A stretch of DNA of 32,000 nucleotides from Neisseriaceae bacterium B1 (GTDB lineage: Bacteria; Pseudomonadota; Gammaproteobacteria; Burkholderiales; Neisseriaceae): NCBI GenBank assembly GCA_051414845.1, contig CP183313.1, positions 217,536-249,535 on the forward strand, read 5' to 3'. Position numbers and translations under genes: made by a program. Of the stretch, positions 5,945 through 24,228 are shown piece by piece. The number at the start of each line of letters is the position of its first letter. Position 1 is the first letter of the stretch. The notes beneath the pieces are model-generated. The model searched no databases and was not told where the DNA came from. It was given only the letters and a program-made list of their open reading frames with translations.

Positions 5945-6892
5945 ATGGCAATCCAATGGTTCCCTGGGCATATGAACAAGGCGAAAAAAGCCATCGCCGA
6001 ACGCCTAAAAAGCGTGGATATGGTGATTGAAATGTTGGACGCGCGCCTGCCTGCGTCTAGTGAAAATCCGTTGTTGGCGCAATTATCTAAAGGCAAGCCA
6101 AAGCTGAAAATTTTGAATAAACAAGACCTTGCCGACCCTGAACGCACGGCGATTTGGTTGGCGCATTATAATTCGCAAGAGCAAACGAATGCGATTGCGC
6201 TGGATAGTTCGGAAAAATCCGCCGCGCCGAAAATTACGGCGGCGTGTCGTGCGCTCGTGCCGAATCGCAAGGGAATTGAGAAGCCGTTGCGCGTATTGAT
6301 TTGCGGCATTCCGAATGTGGGCAAATCTACTTTGATTAACGGTATGATTGGCAAGAAATCGGCAAAAACAGGCAATGAACCAGGGATTACGAAGGCGGAA
6401 CAGCGTTTGTTTTTGGCAGATGATTTTTGGCTCTACGACACACCCGGTATGCTGTGGCCAAAAATCATTGTGGAAGAAAGCGGCTACAATTTGGCGGCTT
6501 CGGGCGCGGTTGGGCGCAATGCGTTGGATGAAGAAGAAGTGGCGTTGGCATTGTTGGATTATTTGCGCCGCCATTATTTATTGATGTTGCAAACGCGTTA
6601 TGCGGCGGATAAGAATGAATCAAGCCATTGGGACGATGTGGCGTGGCTGGAATGGATTGCGAAAAAACGCGGCGCGTTGCTCGGCGGCGGACGTGTGAAT
6701 TATCAGAAAGCGGCGGAAAATGTGCTGACAGATTTTCGCGAGGGCGCGATTGGGCGCATTACGCTGGAAATGCCACGCCAGTGGGAAGAGTGGCTGAAAG
6801 TGGCGCGCAAACGCGAGGCGGAATTGAAGGCGCAACGTGCGGAAAAATTAGCGCAACGTCGTGGGCAGCAGGTGCAACAGTCGCAGGAATAA
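5945..6892 (+). CDS. rbgA: Ribosome biogenesis GTPase A (YlqF/RbgA), circularly permuted GTPase
   Basis: MAIQWFPGHMNKAKK..., NKQDL (G4) precedes GIPNVGKSTLIN (G1). Confidence 0.9.
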   Translation: MAIQWFPGHMNKAKKAIAERLKSVDMVIEMLDARLPASSENPLLAQLSKGKPKLKILNKQDLADPERTAIWLAHYNSQEQTNAIALDSSEKSAAPKITAACRALVPNRKGIEKPLRVLICGIPNVGKSTLINGMIGKKSAKTGNEPGITKAEQRLFLADDFWLYDTPGMLWPKIIVEESGYNLAASGAVGRNALDEEEVALALLDYLRRHYLLMLQTRYAADKNESSHWDDVAWLEWIAKKRGALLGGGRVNYQKAAENVLTDFREGAIGRITLEMPRQWEEWLKVARKREAELKAQRAEKLAQRRGQQVQQSQE

Positions 6893-7360: not shown

Positions 7361-8380
7361 ATGAGCAAAAAACGCAAAAAGTCTCAATCCACCGCTTCAC
7401 CTTTGCAACGCCGTTTGCTGTTGTTTTGGCTGCCGTTTATCGTGATGTTTTTCGGTATGGCATGGTTTTCGCAATTGCGCTACAACGGCGACAAAGAAGC
7501 GCGGGTGGCATTGACGCGGCTGAATGATTGGCGCAGTCAGGCAGGCGTACAGCCGTTGGCGCAAGAAGATATGCTGCAAGAAGCGGCACGCAATCATGCG
7601 CTTTATTTGAGCAAAGACGCGCATGGGCATGATGAGCCTAATCGCAGCAATCCTTATTTTACAGGCGAAACGGCACAAGAGCGCGCCACCAAAGTCGGTT
7701 ACAGTGCGCCTGTTGCCGAGAATTTAACCATCAGTAATTGGGCGCGTTCAGGCAGGGCGGGCGTGGATGGTTTGATGACGGCTTTGTATCATCGTTTGGC
7801 ATTGCTCAACCCTAATCACGATGAGGCAGGCGCGGCTTGGGTGCGCGGTAAACATCAGGCTTTGGTAATTGAGCAGGGCAGTCGCGTGGAGCGTGAATTA
7901 TGCGAACAGCCGCGCCAGCACTCGCAAGCGCGTTATGTTTTGACGACTTTGTGCATGAATCAAAAAGTAGAAATTCAATTAAATCAGCTGCCTGAACAAT
8001 ATGTGGGCGCGGTAAAATTTCCGATAGGTTCGTATATCGAGCCTGTTTACGATGGCAAGGAAAAACCCAATCCGATGCCGCAATACAAAGAAACAGGCAA
8101 CCCGATTAGCATTGCGTTTTATGGACAACAGCAACCGATTGAGATGGTAGCGTTTGAACTGTTTGCGCCACAAGGTCAAATCATGCCAACGGAAATTTTA
8201 ACCGCAAAAAACGACCCCAATGGCGTGTTACTGCCAACTGAATTCGCACTGTTTCCTGTTAAACCATTGGATTTCAATACGGAATACCGCGTTCAATTTC
8301 GTTATCGCCAAAACGGACAAGAGAAACAAGAGCATTGGACGTTTAGAACGCGAGAAAAGCGTAATTGGTTGGAATTTTGA
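7361..8380 (+). CDS. CAP/SCP (PR-1-like) domain protein with N-terminal membrane anchor
   Basis: 339 aa. An N-terminal TM segment (LLLFWLPFIVMFFGMAWF) is followed by NHALYLSKDAHGHDE...VAENL...LMTALYHRLALLNP, typical of YkwD/CAP domains. The C-terminal ~170 aa is unassigned. Confidence 0.65.
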   Translation: MSKKRKKSQSTASPLQRRLLLFWLPFIVMFFGMAWFSQLRYNGDKEARVALTRLNDWRSQAGVQPLAQEDMLQEAARNHALYLSKDAHGHDEPNRSNPYFTGETAQERATKVGYSAPVAENLTISNWARSGRAGVDGLMTALYHRLALLNPNHDEAGAAWVRGKHQALVIEQGSRVERELCEQPRQHSQARYVLTTLCMNQKVEIQLNQLPEQYVGAVKFPIGSYIEPVYDGKEKPNPMPQYKETGNPISIAFYGQQQPIEMVAFELFAPQGQIMPTEILTAKNDPNGVLLPTEFALFPVKPLDFNTEYRVQFRYRQNGQEKQEHWTFRTREKRNWLEF

Positions 8381-14252: not shown

Positions 14253-14296
14253 TTTCAGGCAGCCTAAATAGTTTTTGCAAACGTTTCAGCCTTTTT

Positions 14297-14387
14297 GCGT
14301 AGGATGGGTTTTACCCACCATTTTTCATCACATCAATATTGTGAGTTAAAATATAGGTACTTCGGTGAGCACAGCCCACCTTACGCA
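14297..14387. repeat. REP-like element: inverted pair of GTAGG-hairpin units
   Basis: GCGTAGGATGGGTTTTACCCACC (14297-14319) and GGTGAGCACAGCCCACCTTACGC (14365-14387). Confidence 0.5.
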
Positions 14388-14409
14388 GATTCGAGTAATT
14401 CAAACACTT

Positions 14410-14424
14410 TTCAGGCTGCCTGAA
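14410..14424 (-). repeat. DNA uptake sequence 15-mer (TTCAGGCTGCCTGAA on +)
   Basis: Exact 15-mer in the argH leader. Confidence 0.8.
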
Positions 14425-14446
14425 AGATTTTTTCAAAGGAAAAACA

Positions 14447-15823: not shown

Positions 15824-15991
15824 TAATTTGACTAAAAAGATACTGTATTTCGTGTCAATTGAAATTATTAAAATAACTTGATTTAAATCAAATATTCTTA
15901 ACTTTTCTTGCTCTTTACGCGCGTTTAGCAGCGCACCACATTTTTGGTGTGTGCGTTGTTCTTACAGTTGCACCTTATTCAGGCAGTCTTT

Positions 15992-17008
15992 TCAGGCTGC
16001 CTGATTTTCTTTTGTGGGTTGCTCATGCAAGCTAGGATTGAACAAAGTGTCGTTTTTAATGCAGTGATACGCGTATTTCACCAGCTTAACCATCATCATC
16101 ACATACACTTTTTTCGGCGGTTTGCTTTGCACTTGTTTATCAAACCACGAGCGCCAGAGTTTGCTACGCGTACAGGCAACACGAGCGGGAATGTAGAGCG
16201 ATTTTCTTACGCTTCTATCGCCCATTTTGGACAGTTTAGCTTGCCCTTTGTATTTTCCTGATTGCCGTATTACAGGCGATAAACCAAGCCAACTAATTAA
16301 GTGTTTTGCCGTTGTGAATTTATCAATATCAATAAGCACAGCAAGCAGGATTTGTGAAGTTGTTTCGCCTAAGCCCGTTATGCTTTTTAAGATTTGTTGT
16401 TTGCGCTTTAAGTCGGCATTTTTGTCTATCAATCGTTGCATACGTTTTCGGCATTCCTCAAGTTGAATTTGCAAGGTATTTATAATCTTCTCAATCATTG
16501 TTTTGCTGTAGCCATCGGCAACGTACAGGCGATTCTTTTCCATGGTAAGCATGTTGTTCAGTTGTTCGCAACGTCGGTGCAGACTCTTTAATTCGGCTTT
16601 GCATTCACTTTCAGGCTGCCATAGTTCGGGCGTTTCGGCTTTTGCATATTGGGCAATGAGTTTGGCGTCTTGTTTGTCGGTTTTGATGCGTTTTAAGTGG
16701 TATTGGGCATAGTGTTTGATGATGCTGGGATTGATGACGCTGATGGCGATTTGATGGCGGTACAAATATTGGGCAATGGCGATGTAATAGACGTTGGTGG
16801 CTTCGCAGCAGACATGCAGAGATTGGGTGTCTATTTTCAGGCTGCATAACCATTCTAGAAGCTGCATAAAGCCGTTTTCGTCGTTGCTGATAATGATGTG
16901 CTTGTATTTGCTTTGAATGTGTATGCAGCAGTCTATTTTTTCTTTAGAAATGTCTAAGCCCAGCCAGTAGAGAATGCCGCTTTTTAAGTCGCTTTGTGCC
17001 ATGTTCAT
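15992..17008 (-). CDS. IS110/Piv-family (DEDD) recombinase/transposase, the terminal gene of the prophage
   Basis: YWLGLDISKEKIDCCI (N-terminal DEDD-type motif), KTDKQDAKLIAQYA, and ITGLGETTSQILLA...LISWLGLSPVIRQSGK (C-terminal IS110 domain). I place the start at ATG 17008 (TAAGG RBS), not 17059. The stop codon lies inside a DUS-like CAGGCAGCCTGA. Confidence 0.9.
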   Translation of the reverse strand: MNMAQSDLKSGILYWLGLDISKEKIDCCIHIQSKYKHIIISNDENGFMQLLEWLCSLKIDTQSLHVCCEATNVYYIAIAQYLYRHQIAISVINPSIIKHYAQYHLKRIKTDKQDAKLIAQYAKAETPELWQPESECKAELKSLHRRCEQLNNMLTMEKNRLYVADGYSKTMIEKIINTLQIQLEECRKRMQRLIDKNADLKRKQQILKSITGLGETTSQILLAVLIDIDKFTTAKHLISWLGLSPVIRQSGKYKGQAKLSKMGDRSVRKSLYIPARVACTRSKLWRSWFDKQVQSKPPKKVYVMMMVKLVKYAYHCIKNDTLFNPSLHEQPTKENQAA

Positions 17009-17140
17009 AAACCTTATGAATGCGGGCTTTTTTGCCCAAGATACTGTGATATTTATCAAAAATAGGAAACCGCACGCATCAATCTTTCTCTATTCATTTT
17101 CATAAAAGGCAGCTTATTACGATGTCGTGTGGTTTTGATT

Positions 17141-18325
17141 TTACTGAATATTCGCCAAGTTTTGCGCATTGCCTTCGTTGAGCGATGGGCGGGTTTCGCC
17201 ATTGAGTTGCGCAACATAAGCTTGATCATGCATAGGCTCGGTTTCAGTCGTTTGCGTTTGCTGTGGCTGTGTTTCCTGCTCGGGTGATTTGTAGGGATTG
17301 AACGGCATGCCATCTTCTAAATAGCTTTCGCACAATTCTTGCGAAATTTCCTTGATTTTTGTGAATTGGTTGGTGTAACAAGTGCATTTTTTGTCGACGC
17401 CAATAACGCACGCTTCAGGCCATTCCATGGTTTTAACTTGCCGTTGTCCATCGTACAGCGGTTTGGTTTCGGGACGTTCAGCCAATCGGGCAATAAAGTC
17501 TTCGGGTTTTGCGCCCAAGGTGTTTTGCATTTGATTTTGGGGTAAAGCTCCAGTTAGGCTTTGTGTCGCATTGCTGCCATTTAAAGTAGCAGGTGCGCTG
17601 GCAGTTGTGGTTTCAGTCGCGGTTTCTTCAGTTTTGCCGATGTTTTTGAGCAGACTGTAACTGAAATAAATCATAATAGGCATGAGAATAAAGACGACAG
17701 GCAGCACAAATACCCATTTTGTTACCTTGGTTTTGTTTTCTGTATGAATTTCCGCGGATTTGTACAAATCAAAGACTTTGTCATCCAGTTTATGAATTTT
17801 GGCAAAGGCATCTTTTGCTTGCGTGAGCGGATTGTTGGCGCAGTATTTCCATTCCAGTAGGGTACGCATACCGAGTTTGTTTTTGGCGATGTGCAGATGT
17901 TTATTGACCAGTCCACGCAGGTTGATGTCGATGTTTTTCGGGTTTTGGGTAAGAACGAATATATCAACGCCCAAGTGTCGGTGCGTATTGAGCCATGATA
18001 CATTGGGCGGAACTTGTGAACCGTTGGAACGAGCGGGCCATACGTCTTGAACTTCGTCAATAATCACAACTGAGCCATGGTTTTCAGGTTTTTTGATCCA
18101 TGTATGCATGTCGTGAAAGGAAAGTTGCTCGTCGGTGCTATGCGCTAACTCTTCTTTCAGGCTGCTGACGGCGATGTGAGGCAGCTCCAAACCTTTAATA
18201 TTCGTGAAGACTTTGCGCAGTTCGCCGTCAGGTGTCTTAAATATCGGGTCGTGCAACATCATGTGTACCATGTGTGCGGTTTTGCCAGCTCCGGGCGTGC
18301 CGGTAATGAGGACGATTTCTGCCAT
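17141..18325 (-). CDS. Zonular occludens toxin (Zot)-like / pI-type filamentous phage assembly ATPase
   Basis: MAEIVLITGTPGAGKTAHMV (Walker A), VVIIDEVQ (Walker B), a central TM segment (WVFVLPVVFILMPIMIYFSYSLL), and an AAGGAG RBS. Confidence 0.88.
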   Translation of the reverse strand: MAEIVLITGTPGAGKTAHMVHMMLHDPIFKTPDGELRKVFTNIKGLELPHIAVSSLKEELAHSTDEQLSFHDMHTWIKKPENHGSVVIIDEVQDVWPARSNGSQVPPNVSWLNTHRHLGVDIFVLTQNPKNIDINLRGLVNKHLHIAKNKLGMRTLLEWKYCANNPLTQAKDAFAKIHKLDDKVFDLYKSAEIHTENKTKVTKWVFVLPVVFILMPIMIYFSYSLLKNIGKTEETATETTTASAPATLNGSNATQSLTGALPQNQMQNTLGAKPEDFIARLAERPETKPLYDGQRQVKTMEWPEACVIGVDKKCTCYTNQFTKIKEISQELCESYLEDGMPFNPYKSPEQETQPQQTQTTETEPMHDQAYVAQLNGETRPSLNEGNAQNLANIQ

Positions 18326-18425
18326 GTCTGCTCCTTGCGAAATAGCGATTAAGTGGTGTGTGTTTTGCGCTAGAAATTAGATTTGTGGAATGTTTTAGGT
18401 TGGGTTAGCTGTGTGTTCCGAGACC

Positions 18426-18480
18426 GCCTAAATGTTTAAATATTTAAATCTTGGGGATTTAAATATTTAAACATTTAGGC
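18426..18480. repeat. Perfect hairpin: 25-bp arms with a 5-nt loop
   Basis: GCCTAAATGTTTAAATATTTAAATC-ttggg-GATTTAAATATTTAAACATTTAGGC, between the pVI-like stop (18489) and the zot start (18325). There is no flanking U-run on the minus strand. Confidence 0.85.
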
Positions 18481-18488
18481 TACCTGAG

Positions 18489-18782
18489 TTACTTTTTGCC
18501 GATTCGACTCGTAATTTTACTTACGCCAGTCATCGTCACATAAAACGTTAAACCGCCGAGCATGATGTTTAGTGCGGTGCCACCGCCAGCAATATAAAAA
18601 AGTTGCAAAGCATCTTGCGGTGCGCCAGTCAGATTAGCAGTGATTTGATGGCGGAAATTGGCAAAGATGGGCTCAATACCGTTGTAGGTAACCGCGGTAA
18701 TGCCCAATGCAACGAGCAGTTGCGCAATAATGCCTTTAGTGAGCTTACCCAGAGCGGGCAGCAGTGCGGCGAGAAATCTCAT
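18489..18782 (-). CDS. pVI-like minor coat protein candidate (DUF2523-like small membrane protein)
   Basis: 97 aa with hydrophobic segments and a basic C-terminus (SRIGKK), a GGAG RBS, and a position immediately upstream of the zot-like gene, as in other inoviruses. Confidence 0.6.
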   Translation of the reverse strand: MRFLAALLPALGKLTKGIIAQLLVALGITAVTYNGIEPIFANFRHQITANLTGAPQDALQLFYIAGGGTALNIMLGGLTFYVTMTGVSKITSRIGKK

Positions 18783-18863
18783 GGTACGACTCCGTGATAG
18801 GTTTCTGAATGGGATAGGTTTGAAGTGACAGGATAAATAGAAGTTACCGTAGAAACCCGTTAC

Positions 18864-19090
18864 GCATTTTTTTATCCTTTCGTTTCCGCTCTGAGGTTTC
18901 TGGGGTTTCGCGAGTCGAACATTCCGCCTATTTCAGGTAAAGGGGGTATCTGTAACGATTCGTAACAATTCGCTTGGGGCGAATTCTTACAAATCCTTAC
19001 AGAGACTCCCCCTTTACCTGAAATAGGCTACATGTTCTTTGACGCGCACCCCAGAAACCTCAGACCGGCTCCGAAACGATAAAAAAAAGC
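18864..19090. repeat. 227-bp imperfect palindrome (arms ~110 bp, centre cgcTTGGGGcg at ~18977)
   Basis: The left arm gcatttttttatcctttcgtttccgctCTGAGGTTTCTGGGGT..GCCTATTTCAGGTAAAGGGGG..GTAACGATTCGTAACAATTCG aligns with the reverse complement of the right arm (..CGAATTCTTACAAATCCTTAC..CCCCCTTTACCTGAAATAGGC..ACCCCAGAAACCTCAG..gataaaaaaaagc). Confidence 0.8.
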
Positions 19091-19106
19091 TTCACTAGAT
19101 GAAAAT

Positions 19107-19139
19107 GCCCTGCAAGGGGGATTGACCCCCTTGCAGGGC
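19107..19139. repeat. GC-rich perfect hairpin, 14-bp stem and 5-nt loop
   Basis: GCCCTGCAAGGGGG-attga-CCCCCTTGCAGGGC. Confidence 0.85.
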
Positions 19140-19186
19140 AAACCCCATTTCCTAGACACCCACCAAACCGATAGCCCCGAGCAGTC

Positions 19187-19297
19187 CAGAGATTGCAGCA
19201 ATGGACGCCAACAACTGCACCCCATAGGCAGGACGGCAGAGATTGCAGCAATAACACCAGAAACTGCACCCCATAGGCAGGACGGCAGAGATTGCAG
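19187..19297. repeat. Tandem direct repeat, 2.2 units of 49/50 bp
   Basis: CAGAGATTGCAGCAATGGACGCCAACAACTGCACCCCATAGGCAGGACGG (19187-19236), CAGAGATTGCAGCAATAACACCAGAAACTGCACCCCATAGGCAGGACGG (19237-19285), and the partial unit CAGAGATTGCAG (19286-19297). Confidence 0.9.
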
Positions 19298-19304
19298 GAC
19301 GTGG

Positions 19305-20798
19305 TTAGGCGTTGCGTAGGGCTTTGGTGGCAAAGAATGCCACGACCAGCCAAGCTACCGCAATCAGCAGACCGCGGAGCTTGGCTGCCACGTCGCACAC
19401 GTATTCATACGAGAACGCGAAGGTTTTGCTACTTCCAGCAATGGAAATGTCGAAACTCACGGGAGCAGGACAAACGCCGTTATCGGGAAAGATGGTATCG
19501 GGCTTGAAGTGAATATCGACCACTTTTTCAGGTATGCTGAAATTGGGCTCGGATGCGCTCGGTTTGTCGTCGGGCACTTTGTCACAAGCAAGAATGTCGG
19601 GATTTTTCTCACACAGATCTTCTGTGTCAGTCGGCGGTTGCTTGTCGTCGGTCTTATCCTTATCCCTACCAGTATCTGTAGCGGTGTCATCAGCGGTCGC
19701 GGTATCCGGACTGACAGCGGGCGCTTCGGGACTGTTGGGCTTTAGGTCGGGACGAGGGATAATCTCTTCTTCGATTTTACTGTTTTGACCGGGTGCGTCG
19801 GGGTCGTCTACCACTTTCCAACGTGCTTGCTCGGGTTTACCTGTTTCAGGATTGGTGTACGGATTGGATTGGGCAATTTGACCGGGCAATAGATATACTT
19901 TGGGCTCTGACCATGGGAGCGGGTCGTCGCCACCTGCTGCTTCTAACCATTTTTCAATGGCTTTATCCGCTGCTGCTTCGGCTACACCCATGAAGTCGGA
20001 TTCGGTGAAGGGGATTTTGTCCTTGATTGGAATCATTTTAACGGCTACGTCAGTGCCATAAAAATTACCACGAGTACAAGTACCTTGAGCATCATACCCA
20101 TCGGCTGGTTGACCGAACGCATCAACTGTTCGACATTTCTCAATAGCAGCCTGAGAAGCTTCTTGGAAACCTTTCACGAAAGAGGGATTGTAGCATTTGA
20201 GTTCTTTACATAGCGTGTCAAATTCAACATGTGATAAAGCTGCATGGGTTAAACCATTGTATCTTTGCTTTGTCATAATTACTGCATATGTTTCGTTGTC
20301 AGTGACAGTTTTACACATGCCTTGTTCACATTCTTCGGTATAGCCGTTTTCGCGGGCGAGCTCGTCGTAAATAGCATAGGCTTGTCCGACAAAGGGGATG
20401 GATTTGACTAAGCCTTTGGCTAATCCTTTTCCGACTGCTTTGAAGGCGTTCTTGGCGACGGCAGAGGTGACGGCTTTTTTGGGGATGGTTTGGGTTACTG
20501 TGCCTTTGAGTACGTCGGTTGAGACGGCTCCTGTGGTGCCTCTAAGCTTAGGCAAAATTTCAGCTTTCGTAGCATAAGTTGTACCAGTATTGTTATATCT
20601 CACAGTCGCTTCTAGATTTGAATTTTTAGCAATTTTTTCAACTCCATCTTTGTAATATCGATTATGAAGCCTTACTGTGCCATCACTCTGCCTAATTACA
20701 GCATAATCAACCTGCGCAAAAGCAGGAACTGTAAAAAAAAAGCTATACAGCAGAATAATTAAATTCTTTAAATAAACCCCGCGTTGGATGAATAACAT
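19305..20798 (-). CDS. pIII-like adsorption/minor coat protein candidate
   Basis: 497 aa. It has a signal peptide (LIILLYSFFFTVPAFA-QV), Cys-containing N-terminal domains, a Pro/Asp/Thr-rich linker (PDTATADDTATDTGRDKDKTDDKQPPTDTED) and a C-terminal membrane anchor (LLIAVAWLVVAFFATKALRNA). It lies between the coat cluster and the pVI-like gene. Confidence 0.65.
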   Translation of the reverse strand: MLFIQRGVYLKNLIILLYSFFFTVPAFAQVDYAVIRQSDGTVRLHNRYYKDGVEKIAKNSNLEATVRYNNTGTTYATKAEILPKLRGTTGAVSTDVLKGTVTQTIPKKAVTSAVAKNAFKAVGKGLAKGLVKSIPFVGQAYAIYDELARENGYTEECEQGMCKTVTDNETYAVIMTKQRYNGLTHAALSHVEFDTLCKELKCYNPSFVKGFQEASQAAIEKCRTVDAFGQPADGYDAQGTCTRGNFYGTDVAVKMIPIKDKIPFTESDFMGVAEAAADKAIEKWLEAAGGDDPLPWSEPKVYLLPGQIAQSNPYTNPETGKPEQARWKVVDDPDAPGQNSKIEEEIIPRPDLKPNSPEAPAVSPDTATADDTATDTGRDKDKTDDKQPPTDTEDLCEKNPDILACDKVPDDKPSASEPNFSIPEKVVDIHFKPDTIFPDNGVCPAPVSFDISIAGSSKTFAFSYEYVCDVAAKLRGLLIAVAWLVVAFFATKALRNA

Positions 20799-21099: not shown

Positions 21100-21174
21100 T
21101 CACACGCTCAGCAGGAAGCACGCAATCATCGCAACCGCACCGAAACCCAATAAAAACCAAAAGTCAATTATCAT
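21100..21174 (-). CDS. Candidate 24-aa hydrophobic peptide (pVII/pIX-like size), not in the ORF track
   Basis: ATGATAATTGAC... encodes MIIDFWFLLGFGAVAMIACFLLSV followed by a stop. The ATG overlaps the last codons of the 103-aa ORF. Confidence 0.3.
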   Translation of the reverse strand: MIIDFWFLLGFGAVAMIACFLLSV

Positions 21175-21475
21175 CACTTGCCCCTACTGCGTTCATAGAT
21201 TTAATGAGATTTATCGCTGCTTTAAAGCCAAAAATAAAAACGGCAATCATCACGAGCATACTGCCCATTTGCGCCCCATTTTGAATTTGTTGCATGATGT
21301 CGCATTGCGGATGTGTGAGCTCAATTTTGTGTTGGTTTAAATACCAGCCATCGTCTTTTCGGACTGGACGGATAAGCTGCCCGTCGGCAGTGATAGTAGG
21401 GGGCATAGTGGACAAGATTAAGTCGTCTGCTTCGGTTTGTGTTGATACGCATTGAATGCCTACGCGATATGCCAT
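21164..21475 (-). CDS. Hypothetical phage membrane protein (C-terminal TM segment)
   Basis: 103 aa with a GGGGG RBS and the TM segment MLVMIAVFIFGFKAAINLI. It directly follows the major coat gene. Confidence 0.55.
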   Translation of the reverse strand: MAYRVGIQCVSTQTEADDLILSTMPPTITADGQLIRPVRKDDGWYLNQHKIELTHPQCDIMQQIQNGAQMGSMLVMIAVFIFGFKAAINLIKSMNAVGASDDN

Positions 21476-21493: not shown

Positions 21494-21751
21494 TTACTTA
21501 ACGGTTTTAATCATACTCCAAGCCAATTTAATGCCTTGGACTGCAACGATTACTGTTATGGACGCCATGCCAATGGCAGATACCAATACAATCATGCCTG
21601 AAATGGCATCTGCTACTTTTGTACCAATGTCTTCAAGTGATGCTGCTGCGTTTGCACCTGTTGCAACTGCGATTAAACTTGTAGCAACGGTGGCTTTTAA
21701 AATCGCTTCGTTGGTATTGAAGCCTTTTACTTTTTGCATGATTTTATTCAT
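21494..21751 (-). CDS. Major coat protein (pVIII-like) precursor
   Basis: 85 aa. A leader ending ..ATGANA-AA is followed by an acidic N-terminus (SLEDIGTKVAD), a hydrophobic core (MIVLVSAIGMASITVIVAV) and a basic C-terminus (KLAWSMIKTVK). There is an AGGAGA RBS. Confidence 0.8.
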   Translation of the reverse strand: MNKIMQKVKGFNTNEAILKATVATSLIAVATGANAAASLEDIGTKVADAISGMIVLVSAIGMASITVIVAVQGIKLAWSMIKTVK

Positions 21752-22541: not shown

Positions 22542-23849
22542 TTAAACTTGATTTGCCCAGTCGGGAACTTGGACGCTTTGGGCAATATGGTCGATTTCGG
22601 TAAACAGCATTTCGCGCACATAATCAAACGGTACGCCTGCTTCTTTGCGTTTGTTTTTACTCCACTGATACGCTGCCCATAAAAAGGCTTCGTCGCGTTC
22701 GTGTTGCTCGTTTACAGCGCGTTGATAGTCTTGGTCTAGCTTGGTTTCAGGCGGGATTTCGCTTTGTTGCTGATGTAGGTAAACAGTTTCATCCAGTTCT
22801 ACAGCCACAGCAGCAGCACATAAGCCTTTGGGTAAGCGGTCGTGGTCGGGTTTTAAACGCGCCCAGATTTCGGCTTCGGTTAAGTTCGGAAAGTAGGATT
22901 TGTACATATTCCATACGCCGCCAAAGGCGGTTTTTGCCCAGCTCTCTACTTTGTCTATGGTTTTTTCTACTTGTACGCGATGGCTTTTAATGCGGTCGGC
23001 TTTTTGCGTAAATTGCGCACAAATCGGATACACTCCACCAAAGTATTTGCCTGGCTCGCTTAAAATGTCGGTCGTGATGTGCATGTCACGGTTGCGAAAT
23101 TCGATTTCAAAACGAACCCATGGACTGTTTTTATCGCCCAGTTGTTTGCCTTTTTCATAAATTCGAACGTATTTTGCGCAATTGCGTGAGCCGATATAGA
23201 GTGTTCGCCCTGAACCGACTTCAAACAGTCGATTGCCGTTCTCATCAAAGGCGTTCCAATCACTGCCTACTTTATTCATTTTGGGACGGCGATTGGTCCA
23301 ACTGAAAGCGCCATCAAAATAGGCTTGTTCCATGCTGCCTAAATCAAATAGGCTGCCTGAAAGGTCGTCTATGGTTAAATCGGCGCGAGTAATGCGCGGA
23401 TTGATGGCTTCATCTAAAAATGGTTTTAAGCGTAGCTCCCAGCCCATTAAGGCTGCCTTACAACCTGCTGCGGTTAATTCCACGCATACCGAACCTTTTT
23501 GACTTTTACCGCCATAATGCACTTTGCCGTATAGGATTTCTTCTGTGCCCATTAAGTAACAATGCTCATAAAAGCGGTTACCGCTGGTTTTGGCTTTTTT
23601 CCAGAGCCCGAAACCGAAGATGTCCGCCAGTTGCTCGCTTAATACGCGCATAAAGTCTAATTCGCCTTTGAGTGGGCTTTCGGATAAGGCTTGCAGGGTA
23701 TCTTGATGGAACGTGAATGAAATTTGGTCTATGAATGCTGCATCATCAACGCCACGACGTAGCGGTACTTCTACGACTCTGCCTGTTTCAGTCATAATCA
23801 CTTGAGTGTAATGCTGTGCATTCGGTTTGATGGATTCAGTGCTTTTCAT
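22542..23849 (-). CDS. Rolling-circle replication initiation protein (Rep_trans / phage replication initiation factor family)
   Basis: 435 aa containing ..RITRADLTIDD.., ..GRTLYIGSRNCAKYVRIYEKG.. and ..WVRFEIEFRN.., which resemble the conserved blocks of the Rep_trans family as found in Neisseria filamentous prophages. It has an AAGGGG RBS and contains the only perfect DUS 12-mer in the prophage (23350-23361). Confidence 0.88.
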   Translation of the reverse strand: MKSTESIKPNAQHYTQVIMTETGRVVEVPLRRGVDDAAFIDQISFTFHQDTLQALSESPLKGELDFMRVLSEQLADIFGFGLWKKAKTSGNRFYEHCYLMGTEEILYGKVHYGGKSQKGSVCVELTAAGCKAALMGWELRLKPFLDEAINPRITRADLTIDDLSGSLFDLGSMEQAYFDGAFSWTNRRPKMNKVGSDWNAFDENGNRLFEVGSGRTLYIGSRNCAKYVRIYEKGKQLGDKNSPWVRFEIEFRNRDMHITTDILSEPGKYFGGVYPICAQFTQKADRIKSHRVQVEKTIDKVESWAKTAFGGVWNMYKSYFPNLTEAEIWARLKPDHDRLPKGLCAAAVAVELDETVYLHQQQSEIPPETKLDQDYQRAVNEQHERDEAFLWAAYQWSKNKRKEAGVPFDYVREMLFTEIDHIAQSVQVPDWANQV

Positions 23850-23907: not shown

Positions 23908-24228
23908 TTAGCCGTGGGGGTCGGCATTGACGGCGCAAGACGTGGCTGCTGTGTCAGCATGACTGCTTGCCACCGCAGCCACGTCTTGCGCCTGAAATTG
24001 CATACTGCTGTCATAAAGCAGAACAATCGGTAAGGACGTGCCGTATTGGGTTTGCAATGCAAATGCGCTGGCAATGATGCGTTGTAGGTCGGTATCAAAG
24101 CCGATGTCTTCGTGCATCCAGTCTTTGAAGTTGGTTTTGTAAAGGCATAAGCGGTAGCCATGTTCATGCCGTGTGATGCGGTAGTGGCTGAGTGCGGTGT
24201 TGCCTTGGTTGGTGCTGAGTAACTTCAT
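23908..24228 (-). CDS. Hypothetical phage protein, 106 aa
   Basis: An open frame upstream of rep, co-directional. Confidence 0.45.
   Translation of the reverse strand: MKLLSTNQGNTALSHYRITRHEHGYRLCLYKTNFKDWMHEDIGFDTDLQRIIASAFALQTQYGTSLPIVLLYDSSMQFQAQDVAAVASSHADTAATSCAVNADPHG

Follow-up and report, generated by a model that had tools for sequence, protein, structure and literature searches.

A conserved, strand-specific hairpin of filamentous phages from Neisseria and related bacteria, with a possible role as a complementary-strand origin

Results

We analyzed a stretch of 32,000 nucleotides from Neisseriaceae bacterium B1 (contig CP183313.1, positions 217,536 to 249,535), called the window below, in which a prophage carries a 227-bp imperfect palindrome at positions 18864 to 19090. 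The prophage is an inovirus of the Nf/MDA type, with all phage genes on the − strand of the window in the order Rep_trans, TspB/pIII-like, DUF2523/pVI-like, Zot, and IS110/IS621-like transposase; the Nf1 to Nf4, MDAΦ, and NgoΦ6 to NgoΦ9 prophages have the same gene order and gene families (Bille 2005). The palindrome lies between the TspB and pVI-like genes. Its sequence identifies it as the local version of a conserved hairpin that filamentous phages of Neisseria and related bacteria carry, those of the meningococcal disease-associated (MDA) type included. We refer to the folded structure as the rod. The features of the locus, listed along the coding strand (ORF, open reading frame), are as follows.

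22542-23849, − strand: Rep_trans initiator
21494-21751, − strand: small coat-like ORF
21164-21475, − strand: small ORF (orf5)
19305-20798, − strand: TspB/pIII-like adsorption protein, upstream neighbor of the rod (PF05616 Neisseria_TspB, 1.7e-26)
18783-19304, − strand: intergenic region from TspB to pVI, 522 nt, the sole large noncoding gap in the structural and assembly part
19187-19297, − strand: 49-nt tandem repeat, 2.2 copies (CTCTGCCGTCCTGCCTATGGGGTGCAG...), at the start of the intergenic region after the TspB stop codon
19106-19140, − strand: GC-rich 15-bp hairpin and, after it, TTTTCATC; terminator-like site 3' of the TspB gene and directly 5' of the rod
18864-19090 (inverted-repeat arms to 18859-19095), − strand: giant imperfect hairpin, with a stem of ~91 bp on the coding strand
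19081-19088, − strand: run of T8 at the hairpin's 5' base (coding strand), pairing with the A7 run at 18867-18873; also present in two other giant-hairpin clades
18916-19038, − strand: family-conserved module of the hairpin (central ~120 nt), a full-length match to covariance model R1
18993-19014, − strand: 5' half of the core, AAGGGGG-AGTCT-CTGTAAGGAT (G5 helix, A of the A·A mismatch, bulge, and start of the inner helix)
18967-18985, − strand: apical stem-loop AATTCGC-CCCAA-GCGAATT (coding strand); the apex varies across the family
18940-18959, − strand: 3' half of the core, ATCGTTACAG-ATA-CCCCCTT
18489-18782, − strand: DUF2523/pVI-like protein, downstream neighbor of the rod (PF10734, 2.3e-16)
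17141-18325, − strand: Zot/pI-like assembly ATPase (PF05707, 1.2e-31)
15992-17059, − strand: IS110-family transposase

Read along the coding strand, the intergenic gap thus runs from the TspB stop codon through the 49-nt repeats, the terminator-like hairpin, the rod, and a 76-nt leader to the pVI-like gene.

The original prediction, which had been made from the letters alone, described two arms roughly 85% identical, perfect blocks shared between the arms around a TTGGGG center, and no protein-like ORF across the palindrome, and each of these points was confirmed. A repeat search resolved the palindrome into two nested inverted repeats, one at 18859-18906/19048-19095 (48 nt, 83%) and one at 18917-18951/19003-19037 (35 nt, 86%). 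The perfect blocks CTGAGGTTTCTGGGGT and GCCTATTTCAGGTAAAGGGGG each occur twice in the window, once per arm and nowhere else (chance expectation, 0 to 0.19), and the apex at 18967-18985 reads AATTCGC-TTGGG-GCGAATT on the + strand. Inspection of the ORFs showed that none spans the palindrome and that its edge is touched by just two, which overlap and are out of frame. There is one copy of the palindrome in the window.

The same prediction held that the palindrome would form a rod in a single-stranded phage genome. Folding of the − (coding) strand as single-stranded DNA (ssDNA) does predict such a rod, at −92.4 kcal/mol (z, −19.2), versus −78.8 kcal/mol (z, −15.5) for the + strand, and for neither strand did any of 200 shuffled sequences match these values. 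The paired region, 18864-19090, comprises 90 Watson-Crick pairs and 1 G·T pair. On the − strand the mismatches of the rod are G·G (four) and T·T (one); on the + strand these become the far more destabilizing C·C and A·A.

The nearest relatives of the window prophage by Zot sequence are an Alysiella metagenome-assembled genome (63% identity) and three IMG/VR contigs (68 to 70%), and all four have a hairpin in the same TspB-pVI gap, with sequence that aligns with the center of the window rod. From the alignment with these relatives we drew a 16-base motif, AAGGGGGANNNNNTGTAANGAT, and scanned IMG/VR with it on both strands, which gave 90 contigs, ~80 of them with a complete hairpin and the remainder chance matches. 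A motif scan of 185,579 representative genomes (one per species) gave 105 stretches, 80 of which were listed (L187, L190, and L199 lie beyond those 80); the full hairpin was found in 12. The full-hairpin genomes among the matches listed, ten in number, belong to Neisseria, Kingella, Alysiella, and Conchiformibius. Eleven of the 12 full-hairpin matches adjoin Nf phage genes, and the 12th is a contig of 223 nt with no space for a gene. The family stands at 78 distinct phage or prophage contexts.

Members of the family begin, on the outside, with a stem that varies. Next come the invariant G5:C5 helix, the A·A mismatch, a single base pair, and a bulge of 2 nt on the 5' side, and then the helix formed by TTTGTAAAGAT/ATCTTTAYGAA and an apical stem-loop that varies as well. 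The T·G wobble in the TTTGTAAAGAT helix is fixed in 27 of 28 sequences, and the ATACCCCCTT found in the 3' half of the window core is invariant or nearly so across the family alignment. The core consensus is 5'-AAGGGGG-A(A/G)NN-T(T/C)TGTAA(A/G)GAT ... ATC(T/G)TTAY(G/A)(A/G)ATA-CCCCCTT-3'. The window copy conforms to it and carries a single compensatory replacement of T-A by C-G (alignment columns 37-119).

Covariation bore out the structure. Across 28 diverse sequences, 85.6% of the cells were paired and double changes occurred in 28 of 46 pairs, giving a covariation score of 0.417, compared with 0.135 for shuffles (0 of 500 reached the observed value) and at most 0.138 for slid controls. At outer-stem pair 12-143, for example, we counted CG 11 times, GC 9 times, AU 6 times, and UA twice, and the pair was never unpaired. 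Covariance model R1 scored the window at 80.8 bits (E value, 7.7e-20) on the − strand versus 53.5 bits on the + strand. When R1 was run on loci gathered via Zot alone, the diverged members that emerged kept GGAAG(S)TTTGTAA / TTAYGAATACC, and in these the G5:C5 helix itself covaries (TACGG/CCGTA, GCGG/CCGC).

Searches closer to the window's own sequence returned little. The palindrome had no blastn match among 50,697 phage records, and against these records the 4.7-kb phage segment had just two weak matches, both to protein genes. An exact inner-arm 21-mer gave 0 matches in the species-representative genomes, and a Zot-based locus search of the same genomes yielded one Alysiella contig and no other. 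Scanning metagenomes with a window-specific core 20-mer gave two matches, both unrelated on alignment. An exact-protein look-up found three Logan contigs only, among which the two that cover the palindrome (L005 and L006) are identical to the window; no close variants of the window's outer arms occur among the Logan contigs from this look-up. Both L005 and L006 end exactly at the 19187-19297 tandem repeat. Rfam gave no family match, only sub-threshold microRNA noise on the neighboring small hairpin.

The hairpin is under selection as a structure on the coding strand only. The motif, searched for on both strands, lies on the gene strand in 74 of the 77 contexts with gene matches, and all 55 unique hairpins are more stable on the motif strand. 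On the coding strand each hairpin has 1 to 8 G·T pairs and zero A·C pairs. Each phage has one hairpin. The original prediction had favored, among other possibilities, a phage cis-element, and conservation in related phages, strand specificity, and single copy number all support that view.

The position of the hairpin within the phage varies. In 59 of the 78 contexts it comes after zot, where it precedes the transposase, Rep (in L016, which has no detected transposase gene), or the end of the contig. Twelve contexts, those of the window clade and others, have it between TspB and pVI; single contexts have it between orf5 and zot (L057), after the transposase (L059), and after Rep (L102, a deletion derivative). 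In the remaining four (L026, L111, L072, and L132) the motif lies at a contig end with nothing assignable upstream. The window clade differs in this from most Nf relatives, and the view that a site between gIII and gVI analogues is atypical was half right, in that the TspB/pVI site characterizes an entire clade (12 of 78 contexts). In L102, at 1448-2868 of this Neisseria uirgultaei contig, a Rep gene is followed directly by the giant hairpin. Next comes the stretch that lies ahead of the transposase in relatives, and none of the genes from ssb through zot is present. This derivative may be a satellite-like mini-element.

Giant rods are found in three further clades, with lengths of 236 to 246 nt (contigs with the Neisseria uptake sequence, L015 type), 226 to 233 nt (L043/L052 type), and 190 to 199 nt (L057/L062); other clades have a hairpin of 75 to 107 nt with more small hairpins after it. 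The window rod and those of the L015 and L043 types have in common a run of T8-9 at the 5' base, one of A7-8 at the 3' base, and recognizable blocks in the outer arms. The L015 clade conserves eight G·T wobbles, and compensatory changes are seen there at four pairs of the outer arms. In L035 (hairpin at about 6320-6555, motif strand) the rod is a perfect 236-nt palindrome of −136.6 kcal/mol, the 5' arm of which is the exact complement of its relatives' 3' arm; this suggests either homogenization of the arms by template switching or an assembly artifact. An ATG-started ORF of 107 codons runs across the whole giant hairpin in Neisseria-type phages (L015, 8565-8888). It is almost certainly an artifact of the palindrome and could be misannotated as a gene.

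The type of hairpin does not track the relatedness of Rep, coat, Zot, pVI, or orf5. The canonical core co-occurs with Rep, ssb, orf5, TspB, pVI, and Zot sequences only 24 to 47% identical to those of the window, and a near-identical diverged subtype is found with Zot proteins that are 51% (L203 to L205) and 36% (L215 to L221) identical to the window's. One case is a pair of contigs, L204 and L238, which share 94% identity across 4.6 kb that extend from Rep into the first part of TspB. Past a recombination joint inside the TspB gene, the two carry unrelated pVI-zot modules, arranged as hairpin-pVI-Zot versus pVI-Zot-hairpin, and their hairpin subtypes differ (GGGGGAGGACGTCCAGAAAGAT versus GGGGGAAGCTTTGTAAAGAT). 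The hairpin thus assorts independently of the Rep initiator gene.

Discussion

We consider it probable that the rod is an ssDNA element of the phage that acts in cis, serving as a minus-strand origin, as a packaging signal, or as both. The two roles were among the candidates of the original prediction, and both remain leading readings here. The selected strand is presumably the packaged (+) strand; to our knowledge, all known inoviruses package the strand of coding sense.

We favor, tentatively and by analogy, the reading that the rod is a complementary-strand origin akin to the single-strand origins (sso) of rolling-circle replicons. Such a rod would be active only while the (+) genome, identical in sequence to the coding strand, is single-stranded. 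With that strand covered by single-stranded DNA-binding protein, the rod would remain duplex and would display its asymmetric core, that is, the G5:C5 helix, the A·A mismatch, the 2-nt bulge, and the TTTGTAAAGAT helix with its T·G wobble. Host RNA polymerase or primase could then bind the duplex rod and make the primer by which the incoming ssDNA is converted to the replicative form, and the same rod might also be the assembly (packaging) signal. We infer both the identity of this binding partner and the priming function. What points to a partner from the host is that no phage protein comes near the core in conservation and that the core shows no covariation with Zot, pVI, orf5, coat, or Rep. 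This pointer, the sso-like behavior of the hairpin as a cassette, and the rod size of 190 to 246 nt are the reasons why we rank an origin above a packaging signal.

The comparison with known origins runs in both directions. Like the Ff minus-strand origin (hairpins B and C), ssoA/ssoU, and Frpo, the rod is a long imperfect hairpin on one ssDNA strand with a fixed orientation to replication, as its energy asymmetry, its G·T pairs without A·C pairs, and its constant orientation indicate. It also shares with them a conserved internal motif in a variable stem and cassette-like exchange between replicons independently of Rep. Single-strand initiation sites of the ssoA/Frpo type measure 150 to 330 nt, which rods of 190 to 246 nt appear to resemble more than they do known packaging signals. 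Unlike all of these origins, the rod has no sequence similarity to them and no clear −35/−10 pair, and sister phages of the same hosts carry another set of hairpins; it also differs from the Ff origin in being a single rod rather than two adjacent hairpins.

Several observations weigh against a complementary-strand origin. A promoter scan of 18300-19400 found no sigma-70 −35/−10 consensus in either arm; by eye, a weak extended −10-like TGTAAAGAT lies beside the bulge. The G·T wobbles fit an RNA structure equally well, and the mRNA has the same sequence. Many members consist of a hairpin of only 75 to 107 nt, plus neighboring small hairpins. The motif used to collect most members came from the 5' half of the core, which makes conservation of this half partly a matter of construction; neither the 3' half nor the outer stem nor the orientation is subject to that bias. 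An unrelated hairpin set, GATATTTATTTAATTGTTGAT.../...ATCAACGGTTAAATAAATATC followed by AAACCTGTAAATCGTTTT.../...GGCGGTTTACAGGTTTTT, fills the same gap between zot and the transposase in other phages (L206 to L209, L220, L223, and L228 to L236) that do not differ in gene set and contain the Neisseria uptake sequence, and its presence in the same hosts implies that the core is not dictated by the host alone. We found no experiment on the hairpin in the accessible literature. One published phenotype was set aside: deletion of MDA "orf9" abolishes replicative forms, and we had considered whether orf9 might be the hairpin, given the artifactual 107-codon ORF across the rod in L015, but in the table of Bille 2005 ORF9/NMA1800 is the IS621-like transposase. 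The deletion phenotype, reported under a ten-ORF numbering, is not used as evidence here.

The strongest rival to the origin is a packaging (morphogenetic) signal, an exposed duplex that inner-membrane assembly proteins would recognize, starting extrusion and setting the orientation of the DNA in the manner of the f1/IKe hairpin A; we regard this reading as possible, though slightly less likely than the origin. The rod shares with the packaging hairpins of f1/M13/IKe and of Xanthomonas phages that it is imperfect, lies on the packaged strand in strictly conserved orientation, occurs once per genome, and has conserved stem and bulge bases, and its sequence-specific bulge or loop would suit a dedicated binding protein, such as PSB15 of the Xanthomonas phages. 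It is also intergenic, like the f1/M13/IKe signal, and in most relatives it directly follows zot/pI; the Ff packaging signal likewise lies at the end of the morphogenesis operon. In the L204/L238 mosaic the hairpin travels with the pVI-Zot block and not with Rep, and Russel and Model reportedly found, in 1989, that the Ff packaging signal interacts genetically with pI. Against this, the near-invariant core occurs with assembly and coat proteins that are only 24 to 40% identical, and near-identical subtypes occur with very different Zot proteins. The f1 packaging signal is 78 nt long, and the rod is 3 to 10 times longer than any characterized packaging signal; no pVII/pIX or PSB15-like partner was identified. 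The packaging hairpins of the Xanthomonas integrative inoviruses are 20 to 26 nt long, lie inside the rep gene, and work in either orientation (Yeh et al., bioRxiv 10.1101/2023.12.30.573655), whereas the rod keeps its orientation strictly and lies outside coding sequence.

Of the further alternatives, an element acting at the RNA level, in which a double-stranded RNA hairpin in the polycistronic mRNA would be an RNase III site, an insulator, or an attenuator, seems to us improbable. It would limit the expression of the genes downstream, pVI and zot in the window and, in most relatives, the transposase together with its upstream noncoding RNA. The rod is on the transcribed strand in nearly all contexts, its wobbles are compatible with G·U pairing, it lies just past a terminator-like hairpin and ahead of genes that need low expression, and in most relatives it precedes the transposase region. 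However, an RNase III or insulator role requires no conserved asymmetric core, and the core is kept in five gene contexts, including those after Rep (L102), after the transposase (L059), and before Rep without a transposase (L016); nor does any Rfam family match. We think a plus-strand (rolling-circle) origin or terminator, at which Rep_trans would nick the weakly paired GAATACC of an extruded cruciform, somewhat less probable still. The asymmetric core is on the (+) strand, its YGAATACCC is by eye similar to what we take to be the pT181 nick region, CTAATAGCC, and L102 retains Rep, the hairpin, and the pre-transposase region of its relatives. The hairpin subtypes of L204 and L238 differ, however, even though Rep and its upstream region are 94% identical; the hairpin is usually distant from Rep, whereas Rep_trans origins normally lie within or adjoin the rep gene, and the apical loop, the usual position of the nick, is not conserved. 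That the palindrome is a miniature inverted-repeat transposable element (MITE) or other mobile palindromic repeat inserted in the phage, as the original prediction had allowed, is very improbable, and a generic MITE can be discarded. The element does change position between phages, the L035 copy is a perfect palindrome, and Neisseriaceae genomes are rich in repeats. But there is a single copy in the window, the search for dispersed copies in the representative genomes found 11 of its 12 full hairpins beside phage genes, orientation to the phage genes is constant, and each phage has one copy, in its sole large intergenic gap. By eye the element does not resemble the ends of Correia or dRS3 repeats, and a repeat search found no direct repeat flanking 18859-19095 that could be a target-site duplication, although very short ones could escape it. 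The idea of a folded double-stranded recombination site, on the model of ssDNA attP in CTX phage, was also proposed originally; it has almost nothing left to recommend it, and we reject it. The likeness is to the forked attP(+) hairpin of CTXφ (~150 nt), where an integrative inovirus likewise has a folded region in its (+) ssDNA. The palindrome, however, is uninterrupted and internal to the prophage, flanked on either side by phage genes, rather than split to the prophage ends; a search allowing up to 3 mismatches found no dif-like (XerC/XerD) site; and the phage encodes its own recombinase of the IS110/IS621 type. In published work, an IS621-like recombinase integrates Nf-type phages into dRS3 repeats.

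Two other identities were tried and dropped. An intrinsic terminator is contradicted by an A-run that follows, and a T-run that precedes, the stem on both strands, and a terminator scan returned only the separate hairpin at 19140-19106. An IS110-family bridge RNA does not fit a rod that lies 1.8 kb from the transposase and is also present in L016 and L097, in which no transposase gene was detected.

If the complementary-strand origin is the right reading, the rod may, still more tentatively, represent an undescribed class of single-strand origin cassette of the Neisseriaceae filamentous phages (MDAΦ and the gonococcal NgoΦ included), in which a host enzyme would read the bulged core, the cassette would move between positions and lineages, and the arms would periodically be homogenized, as in L035. 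The cassette and the (+) origin would then form the minimal cis set for Neisseria phagemids. In the literature that we surveyed on MDAΦ, NgoΦ6, and the Nf prophages, no hairpin, origin, or packaging signal is described; Kawai et al. 2005 and Meyer et al. 2016 lay outside the survey, and an earlier mention is possible.

As a kind of object the rod is expected, in that every inovirus needs such signals. The hairpin is an inovirus intergenic single-strand signal, and what is specific to it is the definition of the family, the core, the covariance model, and the positional mobility. Neisseria filamentous phages have been linked to invasive meningococcal disease and are under development as vaccine carriers, and in the accessible literature none of their cis-acting DNA signals (origins or packaging signal) has been mapped; two preprints of 2023-24 state that the packaging signals of integrative inoviruses are largely unknown except for the short Xanthomonas hairpins. 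A candidate is now defined, in the form of a bulged core of ~45 nt in a rod of 75 to 246 nt, with a covariance model and about 50 variants. Nature has supplied experiments on it in the position swaps, the deletion derivative with Rep plus hairpin, and the alternative hairpin set. Its confirmation would open the way to minimal phagemids for Neisseriaceae and would offer a view of how single-strand signals are exchanged among integrative inoviruses.

Additional observations

Other features of the prophage and the window came to light. Directly upstream of the IS110/IS621-like transposase, starting right after the zot stop codon, is a noncoding block of ~140 nt (17003-17140, − strand) that is conserved in L001, L002, L015, and L216 (AAACC.CACGAC.TCG ... 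GAAAGAT.G..GCGT.CG.TTTC ... ACAGTATC..GGGC). From its sequence and placement, it is a candidate for the guide (bridge-type) RNA of the recombinase.

Between the pVI-like and zot genes, 18426-18480 forms a perfect AT-rich hairpin of 25 bp, the apex of which, C-CCCAA-G on the coding strand, is identical to that of the giant rod. This apex 7-mer occurs three times in the window, twice at these two apices and in the same orientation. L002 and L003 have no gap where the window has this hairpin, and in L001 another perfect AT-rich palindrome, of different sequence, lies upstream of pVI (7543-7604). The 49-nt unit of the tandem repeat after TspB contains CTCTGCCGT...GGGGTGCAG, which resembles the hairpin CACTCTGCCGTAGGGCAGG found 3' of the core hairpin in L001 to L003. 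Near the other end of the prophage, at 23932-23992, an inverted repeat of 25 nt (92% complementary) lies ~90 nt upstream of the Rep start, within a small upstream ORF, and is a candidate operator or plus-strand origin.

The window (G+C content, 45%) contains 27 copies of a DNA uptake sequence of the AGGCAGCCTGAA/AGGCTGCCTGAA dialect, for example, at 1119-1163, 14253-14425, and 15985-16010. The copies often form inverted pairs that serve as terminator-like hairpins, and one pair overlaps the stop codon of the transposase. The AGGCAGCCTGAA dialect, which differs from that of Neisseria proper, points to a member of the Neisseriaceae of the Kingella/Alysiella/Simonsiella type; the hairpin core is also found in contigs that carry the Neisseria DNA uptake sequence. 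Finally, two inverted repeats of the dRS3/NTS type (TCGTCATTCCCGCGCAGGCGGGAAT...) lie at 31445-31551, not adjoining the prophage; dRS3/NTS repeats are the integration target of the Neisseria Nf phages and are cut by the Ssn nuclease.

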